Below are positions 14,274 through 18,679 of a DNA stretch of 24,000 nucleotides, in pieces. The translations under genes and the position numbers were made by a program. Location: assembly GCA_028699915.1 (NCBI GenBank), contig JAQVTR010000023.1, positions 2,456-26,455 of the forward strand. The letters run 5' to 3'. How positions within the stretch are numbered: the stretch's first letter is position 1; each line of letters begins with the position of its first letter. The notes beneath the pieces were generated by a model. That model made no database searches. It was given only the letters and a program-made list of their open reading frames with translations, and was not told the origin of the DNA. The stretch is from Fidelibacterota bacterium. GTDB lineage: Bacteria; Fidelibacterota; Fidelibacteria; Fidelibacterales; Fidelibacteraceae.

Positions 14274-14291
14274 CTTCGGGGCTTCCCGAAG
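14274..14291 (+). terminator. Stem-loop after mazG (CTTCGGG-GCTT-CCCGAAG), no U tract
   Basis: A 7-bp perfect stem with a tetraloop, 13 nt after the mazG stop. It lacks a T run, so it may be a stabiliser or a Rho-dependent site rather than an intrinsic terminator. Confidence 0.3.
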
Positions 14292-14312
14292 TCAATCCGA
14301 CCGGAGATTGGA

Positions 14313-14396
14313 TTGACTCAAATAAATTGACTCAAATAAATTGACTCAAAATATTTGACTCAAATAATTTGCCCCAAACAGATTGCCTCATAAAAA
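14313..14396. repeat. 6 x 14-bp tandem array, unit TTGACTCAAAtaaa decaying to TTGCCCCAAAcaga / TTGCCTCATAaaaa
   Basis: Units start at 14313, 14327, 14341, 14355, 14369 and 14383. The core TTGACTCAA is a 9-bp palindrome around its central base. The array is preceded by the hairpin GTCAATCC (14291-14298) / GGATTGAC (14310-14317). Confidence 0.95.
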
Positions 14397-14408
14397 ATAC
14401 GCATTTAT

Positions 14409-14957
14409 TTATTCTTCATAATGATAAGTAAAAGCTTCCACGTATTCCCTGTATTTCTGTGAGTTCGGAAAACAATTCTGACGAATATCAGGTAAAAATA
14501 ATTTACTTTTACGTGCATTGATCCACTCCCGGTAATTTGAGTAAGGCCAGTCTTCCGGTTTTTCAGCCAGGTTTGCGTACACCGGATTCATGTGGATGTA
14601 CTTGCTGAGCTTGATCATATATGTTTTTGTTTCCACGACGGTATGCTGCAGTGGTGACCTGAAAATAGGACCTTTCCGATCGTGTTGTTTGTTGAAATAC
14701 CTCGCATAAGAAATGAAGGTGTAATTAAACAAGCGGTAAATCTTTATGTCACTATCTTGTCTGATCAAAAAATGGTAATGATTGGGCATCAGACAATAGC
14801 TGATAATACCCGCAGGAATTTTATTGATTCGATCCGTGAAAATTTGCAGGAAATAATTGTAATCCTCATCATCGTAAAATAGTTTCAGATCATCAATTGC
14901 ATGATTGAAAACATGGAAAACCCTTCCTGTTGTAAAATCATCCTGTGAACATCGCAT
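14409..14957 (-). CDS. Y1 HUH transposase-fold protein (IS200/IS605 TnpA / REP-associated tyrosine transposase, RAYT-like)
   Basis: 182 aa from the ATG (complement of 14955-14957), which sits 6 nt after AAGGAGG. It has the HUH motif in CLMPNHYHFLI and the catalytic-Tyr helix in KYIHMNPV. Hand GC counts on six 60-nt lines of the gene gave 30-50 %, mostly 30-43 %, against about 55 % in a mazG line. Confidence 0.85.
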   Translation of the reverse strand: MRCSQDDFTTGRVFHVFNHAIDDLKLFYDDEDYNYFLQIFTDRINKIPAGIISYCLMPNHYHFLIRQDSDIKIYRLFNYTFISYARYFNKQHDRKGPIFRSPLQHTVVETKTYMIKLSKYIHMNPVYANLAEKPEDWPYSNYREWINARKSKLFLPDIRQNCFPNSQKYREYVEAFTYHYEE

Positions 14958-15054
14958 CTTCGTCCTCCTTAATTTTATTTTATACGGTAGTAATTTAATA
15001 TAAAAAATCATTCAGCCTGTGCCGGTAAATAAAAAGTGTGATGAAGGTTATAAA

Positions 15055-15110
15055 TTTGAGTCAAAATATTTGACTCAAAACATTTGCCCCAAAACATTTG
15101 CCCCAAAACA
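15055..15110. repeat. 4 x 14-bp array of the same family (TTTGAGTCAAAATA, TTTGACTCAAAACA, 2 x TTTGCCCCAAAACA)
   Basis: Same period, same orientation and same TGACTCA-to-GCCCCAAA gradient as the array at 14313-14396. The first two units form a perfect 11-bp stem with a 3-nt loop (15055-15065 / 15069-15079). Confidence 0.9.
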
Positions 15111-15111
15111 T

Positions 15112-15120
15112 CCCCCCCCC
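15112..15120. repeat. Homopolymeric C9 tract
   Basis: Nine consecutive C, immediately after the repeat array and 9 nt upstream of the -35 hexamer at 15130. Confidence 0.95.
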
Positions 15121-15129
15121 ATTTTTCCC

Positions 15130-15157
15130 TTGACTTCTCACGCGCTTTTCGTATATT
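15130..15157 (+). promoter_or_regulatory. sigma70-like promoter of the DUF134 operon (TTGACT - 16 nt - TATATT)
   Basis: Hexamers at 15130-15135 and 15152-15157 with a hand-counted 16-nt spacer, 33 nt upstream of the ATG at 15190. Confidence 0.55.
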
Positions 15158-15180
15158 ATTATTGGCATATGCCAATAATA
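15157..15180. promoter_or_regulatory. 24-bp perfect palindrome TATTATTGGCATATGCCAATAATA (putative operator)
   Basis: All 12 base pairs of symmetry were checked individually. It spans from the last base of the -10 hexamer to the first base of the AGGAG SD. Confidence 0.6.
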
Positions 15181-15189
15181 GGAGCAAGA

Positions 15190-15609
15190 ATGCCCAGACC
15201 GCCAAAAACACGATGGATATACGGCGACTTCGAAGCGGAGTATTTCAAGCCGCGCGGCCGCAGAATGAGCGAAATAGACGAGATCAGCCTGGAAGCCGAT
15301 GAACTCGAAGCACTGCGGCTTGCGGACCTGGAAGAATTGTATCAGAACGACGCCGCCGAAAAAATGGGTGTTTCCCGGCAGACCTTTGGAAATATCCTGA
15401 AACATGCGCACCAAAAAATTGCCGATGCGCTGATCCATGGGAAAGCCATCCGCATGTTCCCGCCCTCCGGCGGACAACAACACTGCCATCGCTGCGGACA
15501 ACCCTGGTCGGAAACCATCCAGGGACCGGCAGCCGATGAATGTCCCGAATGCGCAAGGGATCGGCACGGGTATGGTCACGGGCACGGGCGGGGCAAACGA
15601 ATAAAATAA
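15190..15609 (+). CDS. DUF134 (UPF0251) family putative DNA-binding protein with C-terminal CxxC...CxxC zinc ribbon and His/Gly tail
   Basis: 139 aa from the ATG at 15190 (AGGAG 5 nt upstream). It has the family-typical N-terminus MPRPPKTRW...FKPRG and a sigma-r4-like HTH (LEALRLADLEELYQNDAAEKMGVSRQTFGNILKHAHQKIADAL). The tail is HCHRCGQPW-x15-CPECARDRHGYGHGHGRGKRIK. Confidence 0.8.
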   Translation: MPRPPKTRWIYGDFEAEYFKPRGRRMSEIDEISLEADELEALRLADLEELYQNDAAEKMGVSRQTFGNILKHAHQKIADALIHGKAIRMFPPSGGQQHCHRCGQPWSETIQGPAADECPECARDRHGYGHGHGRGKRIK

Positions 15610-15634
15610 GAACAAACATAGAAAGGAGAATATT

Positions 15635-15934
15635 ATGCCACGAGGAGACAGAACCGGACCCGACGGAATGGGCCCGATGACGGGAAGGGGATTGGGACTT
15701 TGCAGGAACTATGACAGTCCCGGCTATGTTCGGCGCGGATTTGCCAGCGGTCGCGGAGCGGGATTCGGCAGAGGATTGGGACGCGGCCTTGGCTGGCGCT
15801 CACGCGCTTTTTATGATTCCCGTACTCCGGCAGCCGAAACCGACGATCTGCAGATGCTGAAAGAAGAATCCCGGCGCCTGAACGATGATCTTAAGTCGAT
15901 CAACTCCCGGATCAGGGAAATAGAAAAAACCTGA
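15635..15934 (+). CDS. DUF5320 family protein (Gly/Arg-rich N-terminus, C-terminal coiled coil)
   Basis: 99 aa with an AAGGAG SD. The N-terminus MPRGDRTGPDGMGPMTGRGLGLC matches the family signature MPRxDxTGPxGxGPMTGRG. It is followed by GRG repeats and the helix DDLQMLKEESRRLNDDLKSINSRIREIEK. Confidence 0.7.
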   Translation: MPRGDRTGPDGMGPMTGRGLGLCRNYDSPGYVRRGFASGRGAGFGRGLGRGLGWRSRAFYDSRTPAAETDDLQMLKEESRRLNDDLKSINSRIREIEKT

Positions 15935-16008
15935 AGCCGCTAAACAAATCGGCAGAACACACTGACGAAAACCGCAGTTGATATCGGCCGGCAATGGGAA
16001 ATTTATCT

Positions 16009-16890
16009 ATGAAAATCAGTATTGCGAGCGGAAAAGGCGGAACCGGAAAAACAACACTGGCAAGCAATCTGGCGATGTACCTGTCGGAATTTCAGGATGT
16101 CGTTCTTGCGGATCTGGATGTGGAGGAGCCGAATTCCGGACTCTTTATCCGGGCAGCGGCTTTGCACGAAGAAATATTCAATACCATGATACCGGAATGG
16201 CAGCAAGAGGTCTGTACGCTCTGTGACCGCTGCCGGGAAGTCTGTAATTTTAACGCCATTACCCGCATCGCGGATGAGATCCTGGTATTCCCGCAGCTCT
16301 GCCATTCCTGCTATGCCTGTTCGGAACTATGTCCGGTCAACGCCCTGCCGATGAAACCCAAAAAATGCGGGATCATAAGGCATTTTCGGCGGGAAAAGCT
16401 GGATTTCATCGAAGGCGTTCTGGATATCGGCGAAGAACAGGCCGTGCCGCTGATCGCAGGAACCCTGAGCTATATCAGCGAACATTTCCCGGCCGGGATA
16501 TTGCGTATTGCCGATGCGCCGCCCGGAACCTCCTGCCCCATGATCGCGGCACTTAAAGATGCCGATTATGTAATATTGGTAACCGAACCAACCCCCGTGG
16601 GGCTCTATGACCTGGGCCTGGCGGTCGATACCGTGCGCGCACTCAAAAAGAATTTTGGGGTTGTGCTCAACCGGGACGGGATCGGGAACAGCGATGTGGA
16701 AACCTATTGCAAAAAAGAACATATTCCGCTGATCGCACGTATCCCCCAGCAGCGCCGCATTGCGGAACACTATGCCGAAGGTAAATTGCTCTATAAAAAC
16801 ATCCCGGAGGTCCGCAGCGCACTGGAACAAATCAGCCGGACACTTGGCCTTGTAATCGGAACACGCAATACGGAAAAGGGCCGCCAATGA
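16009..16890 (+). CDS. MinD/ParA-superfamily P-loop ATPase with inserted 2x[4Fe-4S] ferredoxin domain (COG1149-type), paralogue 1
   Basis: Deviant Walker A IASGKGGTGKTT; CTLCDRCREVC and CHSCYACSELCP (CxxCxxCxxxC(P) x2); PPGTSCPMIAAL; VILVTEPTP. The start is taken at MKISIASGKGG (16009); the ATG at 15994 is an alternative. Confidence 0.85.
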   Translation: MKISIASGKGGTGKTTLASNLAMYLSEFQDVVLADLDVEEPNSGLFIRAAALHEEIFNTMIPEWQQEVCTLCDRCREVCNFNAITRIADEILVFPQLCHSCYACSELCPVNALPMKPKKCGIIRHFRREKLDFIEGVLDIGEEQAVPLIAGTLSYISEHFPAGILRIADAPPGTSCPMIAALKDADYVILVTEPTPVGLYDLGLAVDTVRALKKNFGVVLNRDGIGNSDVETYCKKEHIPLIARIPQQRRIAEHYAEGKLLYKNIPEVRSALEQISRTLGLVIGTRNTEKGRQ

Positions 16891-17768
16891 AAGAAATAGT
16901 AGTCATCTCCGGAAAAGGCGGGACCGGGAAAACCTCGGTAACGGCTTCTTTTGCCGTGCTTGGAGAAAAGGATCTGGTGGTTGCGGACTGCGATGTGGAT
17001 GCGGCGGACATGCACGTGTTCCTGGATCCCGATTATCGGGAGAAGCATGATTTTTACAGCGGCGAACTGGCGCAGATCGATCCGGAGACCTGTATCCAGT
17101 GCGGGAAATGCGCGGAGGTTTGCCGCTTTAATGCGATCGATATTGTTAACGGGAGCCATCATGTGAAAGAACTCGATTGCGAAGGTTGCGGCTACTGCGC
17201 CAGGGTTTGTCCCGTTAATGCCATTAAGAATATCCGGAATCATGTGGGCTACTGGTACCGCTCCCGGATCAAGACCGGAGCCGGAATGATCCACGCCAGA
17301 ATGAAGGTAGGTGCCGAGAATTCCGGAAAGCTGGTGGCCAAAGTCAAACAGGAAGCCGCGAAACTCGCGGAAAGCACGAATAAAAAATATGTCCTGGTCG
17401 ACGGTTCTCCGGGCATCGGCTGCCCGGTGATATCCTCGCTTTCCGGAGCCGCCTATGCCGTGCTCGTCACAGAACCCACACTGTCGGGCTTGCATGATCT
17501 GGAACGCGTTTACAGCGTGGTCGAGCGGTTCAGAATTCCGGCGGGATGCATTATCAATAAGGCGGATCTGAATATCCGGAACCGGGATAAAATACGGGAA
17601 TTTTTAAAGGACAAGGCCATCGACTTGCTGGCGGAACTGCCTTACGATCTGCGTATCTCCACCTTGATGGTCGGGGGAAGGACCATGGTGGAAGATCCCG
17701 CGATCGAAAGCGGAGCAATGCTCGGGAAAAGCTGGAATTATATCCTCAATAGATTAAAAATGAATTGA
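16887..17768 (+). CDS. MinD/ParA-superfamily P-loop ATPase with inserted 2x[4Fe-4S] ferredoxin domain (COG1149-type), paralogue 2
   Basis: ATGA overlap with paralogue 1. VISGKGGTGKTS; CIQCGKCAEVC and CEGCGYCARVCP; SPGIGCPVISSL; AVLVTEPTLSG. Confidence 0.85.
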   Translation: MKEIVVISGKGGTGKTSVTASFAVLGEKDLVVADCDVDAADMHVFLDPDYREKHDFYSGELAQIDPETCIQCGKCAEVCRFNAIDIVNGSHHVKELDCEGCGYCARVCPVNAIKNIRNHVGYWYRSRIKTGAGMIHARMKVGAENSGKLVAKVKQEAAKLAESTNKKYVLVDGSPGIGCPVISSLSGAAYAVLVTEPTLSGLHDLERVYSVVERFRIPAGCIINKADLNIRNRDKIREFLKDKAIDLLAELPYDLRISTLMVGGRTMVEDPAIESGAMLGKSWNYILNRLKMN

Positions 17769-17784
17769 AAAGAAAGGAAAGACC

Positions 17785-18123
17785 ATGAAAATAGCTTTCA
17801 GTGCAAGAGGAAAGGAATGGGAGGATGCCATTGATCCGCGTTTCGGACGCAGTGAGTATTTTCTTGTTTATGACGAAGAAAGCCAGGAGCTGTCTGTCAT
17901 TGATAACCGCGACGTTGTGCAGGAAGCGCATGGCGCGGGTCCGAGGACCGCTCAGCGCCTGCTGGATGAAAAGGTTTCCGTACTGGTCACCGGAAACGGA
18001 CCCGGCGGCAATGCGGCCGGTGTGCTGAGCCGCGCCGGTATCAAGGTTTATGCGGGAGCCGGAGCTATGAGCATCCGGGAAGCTTACCAGGCATACAAGG
18101 CCGGAAAGCTGCCTTTGTATTAA
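17785..18123 (+). CDS. NifX/NifB-C-terminal-type (dinitrogenase FeMo-cofactor-biosynthesis domain) small protein, subtype 1
   Basis: 112 aa: MKIAFSA...IDPRFGRSEYFLVYD...VLVTGNGPGGNAAGVLSRAGIKVY, the typical pattern of the Nitro_FeMo-Co (PF02579) domain. Confidence 0.8.
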   Translation: MKIAFSARGKEWEDAIDPRFGRSEYFLVYDEESQELSVIDNRDVVQEAHGAGPRTAQRLLDEKVSVLVTGNGPGGNAAGVLSRAGIKVYAGAGAMSIREAYQAYKAGKLPLY

Positions 18124-18228
18124 ATCCGGCCTTGTTAATAAGGACAGGAACCTGTAAGTTAATTCCGGATCATTCCGTCCGTTGCGGAAATATATAAATG
18201 AAATTAAAAAAAAAAGAGGAGTATCAGA

Positions 18229-18564
18229 ATGATCATTGCAGTACCGGTTAAGGGAGGACTTTTATCGCAGCATTTCGGGCATTGTGAAAGTTTTCGGCTT
18301 TTTCATACGGACAAAGATAAAAACATTCTTCGCAACGAAGACCTGACGCCGCCGCCGCACGAACCCGGGGTTCTGCCGAAATGGCTTGCGGAACAAAAAG
18401 CGAACGTGATCATCACCGGCGGCATGGGAATGCATGCGCAGCAGCTGTTTGCGCAGAACGGGATCGAAGTTGTGCTCGGTGCTCCGGCGGGTGATCCGCT
18501 ATGTATTGCTGAGGAGTGGCTGAAAGGTTCCCTGGAAAGCGGAGCCAATCCCTGCGATCATTAA
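18229..18564 (+). CDS. NifX/NifB-C-terminal-type small protein, subtype 2 (His/Cys-bearing)
   Basis: 111 aa with a GAGGAG SD: MIIAVPV...LSQHFGHCESFRLF...VIITGGMGMHAQQLFAQNGIEVVLG...GANPCDH. Confidence 0.8.
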   Translation: MIIAVPVKGGLLSQHFGHCESFRLFHTDKDKNILRNEDLTPPPHEPGVLPKWLAEQKANVIITGGMGMHAQQLFAQNGIEVVLGAPAGDPLCIAEEWLKGSLESGANPCDH

Positions 18565-18581
18565 AAAACGGGCACCAGGAA

Positions 18582-18606
18582 AACACCCCGCCATCGGCGG
18601 GGTGTT
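18582..18606. terminator. 11-bp GC-rich hairpin shared by the converging NifX-like operon and tRNA-Glu
   Basis: AACACCCCGCC-ATC-GGCGGGGTGTT. On the minus strand it is followed by TTTTCC, which makes a good terminator 1 nt after the tRNA 3' end. On the plus strand it is followed by GTATCCCC, a poor U tract. Confidence 0.6.
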
Positions 18607-18607
18607 G

Positions 18608-18679
18608 TATCCCCTAGGGGATTCGAACCCCTGTTGCAGGAATGAAAATCCTGAGTCCTGACCACTGAACGAAGGGGAC
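18608..18679 (-). tRNA. tRNA-Glu (anticodon UUC)
   Basis: The reverse complement GTCCCCTTCGTTCAGTGGTCAGGACTCAGGATTTTCATTCCTGCAACAGGGGTTCGAATCCCCTAGGGGATA folds as a cloverleaf: a 7-bp acceptor stem (G1.U72 wobble), D stem GTTC/GGAC, anticodon stem CAGGA/TCCTG with loop TTTTCAT (anticodon TTC), and T arm AGGGG-TTCGAAT-CCCCT. It closely resembles E. coli tRNA-Glu. CCA is not encoded. Confidence 0.93.

Follow-up and report, generated by a model that had tools for sequence, protein, structure and literature searches.

The 24,000-nucleotide stretch analyzed here (its whole length is called the window) comes from contig JAQVTR010000023.1 of a Fidelibacterota bacterium (GenBank assembly GCA_028699915.1; 1.95 Mb in 115 contigs, 93% complete) and carries a 24-bp perfect palindrome directly upstream of a gene for a protein of the DUF134 (UPF0251) family. 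We propose that this palindrome is likely the operator of the DUF134 protein itself, which would act there in autorepression, a reading that draws on the symmetry and uniqueness of the element, its overlap with a promoter recognized by consensus, its conservation, the covariation between protein and DNA, and the protein fold. The original prediction had taken the palindrome for the operator of a dimeric repressor, with the helix-turn-helix (HTH) protein encoded downstream as its most economical binder, and it is now supported by conservation in orthologs, by palindromes across phyla, by the covariation, and by the confinement of a 14-mer core to the neighborhood of DUF134 genes. HTH autorepressors acting on palindromic operators are in themselves an ordinary type of system. 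DUF134/UPF0251 is an old and widespread family of "unknown function" in bacteria and archaea, and our literature search found no paper characterizing DUF134, UPF0251, PF02001, or COG1342, only incidental mentions. For the family, our results supply a specific DNA target, a mode of action predicted to be autorepression at the core promoter, and a specificity rule of one residue to one base; they also link it to the genes for orange-protein-type Fe-S/heterometal clusters in anaerobes, which are poorly understood.

The palindrome (TATTATTGGCATATGCCAATAATA) consists of two 12-nt arms without a spacer and cannot be extended, because T at 15156 stands opposite G at 15181. Its 5' base is the final T of TATATT (15152-15157) and its 3' base the initial A of AGGAG (15180-15184); the perfect symmetry and both boundaries had been described correctly and can be read directly from the sequence. 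The HTH gene that had been placed directly downstream is indeed the DUF134 open reading frame, although its ATG lies at 15190 and not at 15191, leaving 9 nt rather than 10 between the palindrome and the start codon. Dyad symmetry with half-sites of about 10 bp is what an operator for a dimeric HTH repressor calls for. No other perfect palindrome without a spacer reaches its length in the window; the earlier statement that the window holds nothing comparable stands for spacer-less elements but not for two perfect inverted repeats with 11-bp arms and 3-nt spacers (15055-15079 and 18582-18606), of which the former is a member of a genome-wide repeat resembling repetitive extragenic palindromes (REP) and the latter is the operon terminator. 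Only four perfect palindromes of at least 24 bp occur in the whole genome, and the 14-bp core TTGGCATATGCCAA is present in a single copy (with two mismatches, 7 matches versus 8 for a reversed-pattern control). Given this rarity and the uniqueness of its core, the palindrome is not a chance feature.

When 60 related genomes were searched in six frames, DUF134 orthologs sharing 56-79% identity turned up in 22, which belong to the same genus and its sister genus and for which the nearest named records are metagenome-assembled genomes (MAGs) of Candidatus Neomarinimicrobiota (Marinisomatota). The motif ATT-R-GCATATGC-C-AATAA precedes all 22 orthologous genes and ends 9-17 nt before the start codon. 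Apart from the palindrome, a -35 element of the TTG.. type, a -10 element of the form TAa.TT, and GGAG, the upstream regions cannot be aligned. When the 21 distinct upstream regions are compared, the core (15159-15178) averages 1.72 bits of information per position, the -10 element 1.35, the -35 element 0.77, the spacer 0.39, and the sequence further upstream 0.29, and the palindrome is the most conserved element upstream of every ortholog examined. The loss of conservation that the original prediction had named as refuting it was therefore not found.

The element also extends far beyond these two genera. A family scan with the DUF134 alignment as query, limited to one genome per species, yielded 80 loci in about 20 phyla. 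When these were combined with the Marinisomatota loci, a CATATG-centered palindrome (at least 7 of 10 symmetric pairs, at most 200 nt upstream) was found before 82 of 112 DUF134 genes. Its general form in the other phyla is TTAT-x-R-GCATATGC-Y-x-ATAA (TTAT-x-R-GCAT/ATGC-Y-x-ATAA), and it lies on the core promoter of most DUF134 genes fetched from them.

An indication of who binds comes from covariation between protein and DNA, counted over distinct sites. The variable residue of the protein is the one that follows Gly in the helix aligned to SRQTFGNI; it is Asn68 here and occupies position 6 of the third helix (residues 63-83), the expected recognition helix in the AlphaFold2 (AF2) model. A Gly-Asn helix goes with T at half-site position 5 in 39/39 left and 39/39 right halves. 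With a Gly-Arg helix this base is G in 26/26 left halves; the right halves have G in 14 cases, A in 11, and T in 1, the A cases being arms that double as a TATAAT box. The pairing of Arg with G is a classical contact. Two smaller classes behave in the same manner: Thr-Arg helices go with G, in GAAC half-sites (2/2 left, 2/2 right), and Gly-Leu helices with T, in TTTTTGG half-sites (3/3 left, 3/3 right). Since related sequences share labels, we placed the 78 distinct N-terminal domains on a tree, in which Asn/T rows are intermingled with Arg/G rows; well-supported branches force at least four Asn/T switches, eight being the most parsimonious number, and all 78 rows are concordant between protein and DNA. 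A covariation without exceptions that involves the recognition helix points to DUF134 itself as the binder.

In every class the site overlaps the predicted core promoter, with its center 18-19 nt from the start of the -35 element in the Gly-Arg class, 34-37 nt in the Gly-Asn class of other phyla, and 39-41 nt in this genus. Where the helix is Gly-Arg, it fills the optimal 17-nt spacer and supplies the -10 box, its right arm doubling as the -10 hexamer. The promoters of more distant Marinisomatota paralogs that possess a Thr-Arg helix bear ATGAACAT/ATGTTCAT or a sequence close to it, in some cases at two sites.

The distribution of the core follows that of the gene. Among 61 related genomes, the exact 14-mer TWRGCATATGCYWA is found in 16, once per genome and directly beside the DUF134 start, and the other DUF134 carriers have the 14-mer with one mismatch at the same place. 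In 28 genomes outside both genera, none of which has this type of DUF134, it occurs twice, comparable to the 8 genomes matching a reversed-pattern control. The second exact 14-mer in genome G016 precedes a second, truncated DUF134 start. A further 16-mer match, in genome G020, was dropped as an operator since it lies within a coding region and is thus due to chance. A site that is single-copy, tracks the DUF134 gene, and changes with the helix of its product is hard to reconcile with any other regulator.

Scoring the genome with a position weight matrix made from the genus sites gave 35.8 for the site in the window and 27.0 for one other place, with maxima of 20.9 and 11.6 in two shuffles. A genome scan for further sites had been suggested at the outset; the core proved unique, and this one additional candidate emerged. 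It reads TTATTAGCATATGCCAGATA and lies on the minus strand of contig C15 (5874-5893; locus L002, 1498-1517), 134 nt upstream of a DUF89/ARMT1-like ("damage-control phosphatase") gene, in the arrangement TTGACT-17-TATTAT-TAGCATATGCCAG. Its imperfect half, CTGGCAT, also occurs in the operators of three orthologs. It is plausible that this is a species-specific second target; otherwise, the regulon in this lineage would be essentially DUF134's own operon.

The predicted binder belongs securely to its family. The DUF134 domain (PF02001) covers residues 3-87 with 73.7 bits against a cut-off of 27 (E = 1.8e-20), and the family motifs are present, namely the N-terminal MPRPxKxR, FKPxG, and SRxTF in the recognition helix. 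Across 61 DUF134 sequences, M1, R3, R8, P21, E38, E40, A56, M59, S62, R63, and F66 are invariant. The protein is laid out as a sigma-70-region-4-like HTH (helices 36-47, 52-59, and 63-83), a beta-strand (86-89), a C-terminal CxxC-N15-CPxC ribbon, and a His/Gly tail. In the AF2 model (mean predicted local distance difference test score, pLDDT, of 80; block means of 84-98 for residues 11-90), the three-helix HTH is followed by the conserved strand (consensus ALxIEGG). The ribbon is invariant in the Marinisomatota set and common, though not universal, in the family; it has only weak zinc-ribbon or HypA-like Pfam matches and, speculatively, is where a metal, Fe-S, or redox signal would most obviously be received.

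A sequence search of the Protein Data Bank (PDB) with the DUF134 protein gave no significant chain match. By structure (Foldseek), the top PDB matches are region 4 of extracytoplasmic function (ECF) sigma factors and the operator-bound DNA-binding domain of DeoR, with root-mean-square deviations (rmsd) of 0.6-0.8 Å over 40-50 columns and at most 32% identity. The best of them are the ECF sigma factors, for example M. tuberculosis SigD (3VEP/3VFZ) and E. coli sigma-E on -35 DNA (2H27), at 0.6-0.8 Å over about 49 columns. The DUF134 protein also has sub-threshold Sigma70_r4 Pfam matches, and TIGR02937 covers the region-4 end only, with 22 bits against a cut-off of 42.9. Pfam gives no match for Sigma70_r2; lacking region 2, DUF134 is not a sigma factor. 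Moreover, its predicted target is palindromic, unlike the single -35 element of an ECF sigma factor, and overlaps the -10/+1 region of a putative sigma-70-type promoter.

The B. subtilis DeoR of the SorC/DeoR subfamily (PDB 7BHY, 8R7Y) resembles DUF134 in having a small HTH of three helices, 50-60 residues long, with a beta-strand behind it; the two superimpose over 40 columns with an rmsd of 0.7 Å and 32% identity. DeoR dimerizes through this strand on a palindromic half-operator overlapping the promoter (PMC11229326), and by analogy the strand of DUF134 may form a similar interface. SorC proteins characteristically end in an effector domain of about 250 residues that binds sugars (IPR007324; PMC11229326). 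DUF134 is not a member of SorC/DeoR, because it lacks this domain: at 139 residues it carries a Cys4 ribbon instead, and Pfam reports DUF134 plus weak HTH and zinc-ribbon matches only. The operators differ as well, that of DeoR being 39 bp long, asymmetric, and tetramer-bound, and the one predicted for DUF134 a single dyad of 20-24 bp.

On the DNA side, a consensus scan finds TTGACT (15130) separated by 16 nt from TATATT or by 18 nt from TATTAT, each of the two arrangements matching 10 of 12 positions; the region has five promoter-like matches, versus 1.0 expected. When 17 distinct promoters of the genus group were scored, 13 proved to retain TTG at a fixed distance (39-41 nt to the palindrome center). 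With respect to the best of these consensus-only promoters, the palindrome covers about -7 to +17, and the overlap is equivalent in relatives. The predicted +1 (15164) coincides with the sole variable position (G/A) of the left half-site, a column occupied by R in all orthologs.

Based on these results, we suggest that a DUF134 dimer would set one sigma-70-region-4-like HTH onto each 10-bp half-site TTATTGGCAT, with Asn68 at position 6 of the recognition helix reading T at half-site position 5. Because the site spans about -7 to +17, the bound dimer would be expected to block transcription initiation, at either open-complex formation or promoter escape. DUF134 would in this way repress its own six-gene operon, which comprises DUF134, DUF5320, two ferredoxin-inserted MinD-type ATPases, and two NifX-like proteins and resembles the Fe-S set of the orange-protein complex; a metal, Fe-S, or redox signal at the C-terminal Cys4 ribbon would then free the operator from the repressor. 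Much more tentatively, and with more doubt than confidence, we extend this to the family: DUF134 proteins could be widespread repressors that sense through a Cys4 ribbon binding Zn or Fe-S, which in anaerobes of many phyla would be the counterpart of Desulfovibrio sigma-54/OrpR as the dedicated switch for orange-protein-type Fe-S machinery, with a simple, portable code in which Asn at helix position 6 specifies T, and Arg specifies G, at half-site position 5. If true, operators and hence regulons would be predictable from the DUF134 protein sequence alone.

Several points weigh against our proposal. The covariation classes are partly clade-bound, and the 90-residue tree is poorly resolved, with 31 of its 75 branches open. 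The Foldseek E-values, at least 0.09, are weak because the domain is small. The C-terminal ribbon is modeled at a pLDDT of 55-64 and is absent from many family members, which makes its sensor role speculative. The promoter is putatively of the sigma-70 type by consensus matching only, its +1 is predicted from geometry, and we infer binding, dimerization, repression rather than activation, and the signal. Finally, the second site on contig C15 is not conserved before the DUF89 orthologs of 17 genus genomes, where the gene lies inside another operon.

Among the alternatives, DUF134 might bind the palindrome to activate transcription, or to regulate it in both directions, for instance if its fold, which is nearest to sigma-70 region 4, recruits RNA polymerase; the outer arms TTATAA/TATTAT also resemble -10 hexamers, and in many relatives one arm is the -10 box. 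We regard this as unlikely. A center at +5, as in the window, or within the optimal 17-nt spacer is a typical repressor position, the spacers are not of the 19-20 nt that MerR-type activation needs, so that their lengths exclude such a mechanism, and the protein is devoid of sigma region 2. Still less probable is that the operator belongs to another transcription factor, encoded elsewhere and controlling the Fe-S operon. DUF134 binding is, after all, a prediction, and the CATATG-centered GAAC variant of distant relatives resembles the Firmicute LexA (Cheo) box. Yet the half-site base changes with the DUF134 recognition helix in every case, and the site stays with DUF134 where the downstream genes differ and precedes even the truncated second copy of the gene. 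A global regulator does not fit either, since the site is single-copy here and in relatives.

The original prediction had offered, as its own alternative, a hairpin in the 5' untranslated region beside the Shine-Dalgarno (SD) sequence. Such a hairpin would act on translation or mRNA stability. A transcript starting at or before 15157 would indeed form a 10-bp stem (-16.1 kcal/mol, z = -4.1), but the predicted +1 near 15164 falls inside the left arm and leaves a stem of only 3 bp (z = -1.5). The variable pair of the Gly-Asn class (G..C 11, G..T 9, A..C 15, A..T 4) reveals no pairing constraint, the non-pairing A..C combination being the commonest (15/39 versus about 12.7 expected from column frequencies if the halves are independent). 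In the Gly-Arg class of many relatives, the site lies between the -35 and -10 elements and is thus not transcribed, so that the element acts as DNA; we therefore consider the hairpin very improbable. Least credible of all is a chance or selfish feature, either part of the repeats associated with REP-associated tyrosine transposases (RAYTs) or a restriction-site-centered palindrome without regulatory function. A RAYT-like gene and palindromic 14-nt repeats do lie 50-100 nt upstream, and the core CATATG is an NdeI-type hexamer. The palindrome, however, is unique in the genome, in contrast to the 174 copies of the TTGASTCAA repeat unit, and we rejected its membership in the REP/RAYT repeats; orthologs without the RAYT gene keep it as well (a tblastn search for the RAYT protein gave no match in any orthologous locus fetched), and the conserved positions number twenty, not six.

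The likely autorepression by DUF134 would concern an operon whose five genes downstream of DUF134 are tightly packed on the same strand (Table 1). Its content is that of an orange-protein (ORP) gene cluster: two MinD-like ATPases with two [4Fe-4S] motifs and two Nitro_FeMo-Co proteins. The orange-protein complex comprises Orp3/Orp4 (MinD-like, with two [4Fe-4S] motifs), Orp8, and the Di-Nase domain of MrpORP (PMC6345978). Expression of the Desulfovibrio orp cluster depends on sigma-54 together with the activator OrpR (PMC8359166, PMC4641369), which senses redox via an Fe-S cluster (PMC8359166, PMC6345978, PMC4641369). The orp genes of Desulfovibrio vulgaris Hildenborough thus share with this operon the MinD-like [4Fe-4S] ATPases, the Di-Nase domains, and a dedicated local regulator, here predicted to be DUF134, limited to its own operons. 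The regulators themselves differ: OrpR is a sigma-54 enhancer-binding activator that recognizes GGGCGYRTTTTGCGCCC upstream of the -24/-12 elements, whereas the predicted site here lies on the core promoter of a putatively sigma-70-type promoter, and its regulator is a 139-residue HTH protein encoded by the first gene of the operon. Next to the operon we found no OrpR-type site (GGGCGYRTTTTGCGCCC) or gene, and the GG-N10-GC spacing is absent from the palindrome; a sigma-54 promoter reading of TTGGCA... was ruled out, GG and GC being 5 nt apart, not 10. For annotation of this genome, positions 15130-18606 can be regarded as a predicted self-contained, autoregulated unit.

Table 1. Features in and around the predicted DUF134 operon (positions in the window)
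Feature	Position	Strand	Basis or remark
RAYT-like tyrosine transposase gene, upstream, divergent	14409-15011	-	NCBIfam REP_Tyr_transpos 56 bits, under cut-off 80
-35 hexamer TTGACT	15130-15135	+	consensus scan
-10 hexamer TATATT	15152-15157	+	alternative TATTAT 15154-15159 with 18-nt spacer
24-bp palindrome, predicted DUF134 operator	15157-15180	.	conserved core 15159-15178 (TTATTGGCAT/ATGCCAATAA); dyad center between 15168 and 15169
Predicted transcription start	15164	+	7 nt past the -10 box, from promoter geometry; inferred
SD sequence AGGAG	15180-15184	+	GGAG conserved in orthologs, 1.33 bits
DUF134 (UPF0251) gene, 139 aa	15190-15609	+	Pfam, alignments, AF2 model, Foldseek
DUF5320 gene (Gly/Arg-rich head, C-terminal helix)	15635-15934	+	follows DUF134 in most genus orthologs
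MinD/ParA-type P-loop ATPase with inserted 2x[4Fe-4S] ferredoxin domain (Orp3/Orp4-like)	15994-16890	+	CbiA/ParA and Fer4 domains
Second MinD/ferredoxin ATPase	16887-17768	+	start overlaps stop of first ATPase (ATGA); CbiA/ParA and Fer4 domains
NifX-like/Nitro_FeMo-Co ("Di-Nase", orange-protein-type) protein 1	17785-18123	+	Nitro_FeMo-Co domain
NifX-like/Nitro_FeMo-Co protein 2	18229-18564	+	resembles MrpORP C-terminal domain, E = 1.6e-35, under full-length cut-off
GC-rich hairpin 11+3+11 closing the operon	18582-18606	.	
tRNA-Glu gene, convergent	18607-18679	-	adjoins hairpin

The resemblance of some relatives' sites to a LexA box deserves comment. In Firmicutes, the LexA/DinR SOS (Cheo) box is GAAC-N4-GTTC, and the Thr-Arg DUF134 sites of the same phylum as the window (ATGAACATATGTTCAT) contain this Cheo core, both being CATATG-centered promoter dyads. 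The site in the window, unlike the Cheo box, reads TGGCATATGCCA rather than GAAC/GTTC and covaries with DUF134, not with LexA. Membership in a LexA regulon was accordingly rejected, the core here being GGCATATGCC and each genome having one site. Sites of the ATGAACATATGTTCAT type, sometimes two per promoter, precede genes for Thr-Arg and some Pro...Gly-Arg DUF134 proteins (L038, L039, L040, L097, L099; L027-L033), and the match of their core to the Firmicute box could mislead automated regulon prediction.

Further loci of the family showed peculiarities of their own. In the sister-genus genomes G022, G026, G028, and G032 (L035-L037, L030), a second DUF134 paralog, of the Thr-Arg type, directly follows another gene, which we take to be YchF-GTPase-like from its C-terminal end; these paralogs have no promoter or palindrome of their own at these loci and are therefore uninformative on operators. 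The second DUF134 copy of G016 (contig C121; L147, 1400-1560) stops after 22 codons and may be a pseudogene, a strain variant, or an assembly artifact. At the Gly-Arg loci L053, L073, L077, L087, L092, and L112 (Nitrospirota and delta-proteobacterial MAGs), the ATG lies 5-6 nt past TATAAT and no SD sequence is present, so the DUF134 mRNAs of these loci are probably leaderless.

The repeat upstream of the operon is dispersed in the genome. Most copies of its TTGASTCAA unit, to which the palindrome at 15055-15079 belongs, are arranged either as 14-nt units repeated in tandem, frequently where contigs end, or as inverted pairs with a distance of 24 nt. Within positions 14291-15120 of the window, repeat arrays at about 14313-14360 and 15055-15110 flank the RAYT-like gene, and a RAYT-like paralog on contig C44, 60% identical, likewise lies beside an inverted pair. 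Elsewhere in the genome, a perfect 20-bp palindrome, TTTGTAACATATGTTACAAA, was seen at C80:24558 and C106:9 (L145, L146), about 25 nt upstream of a gene; the two copies represent one locus, as the contig ends overlap. From its N-terminal sequence, we take the product of this gene to be Crp/Fnr-like, and it is probably another autoregulated factor with a CATATG-centered site.

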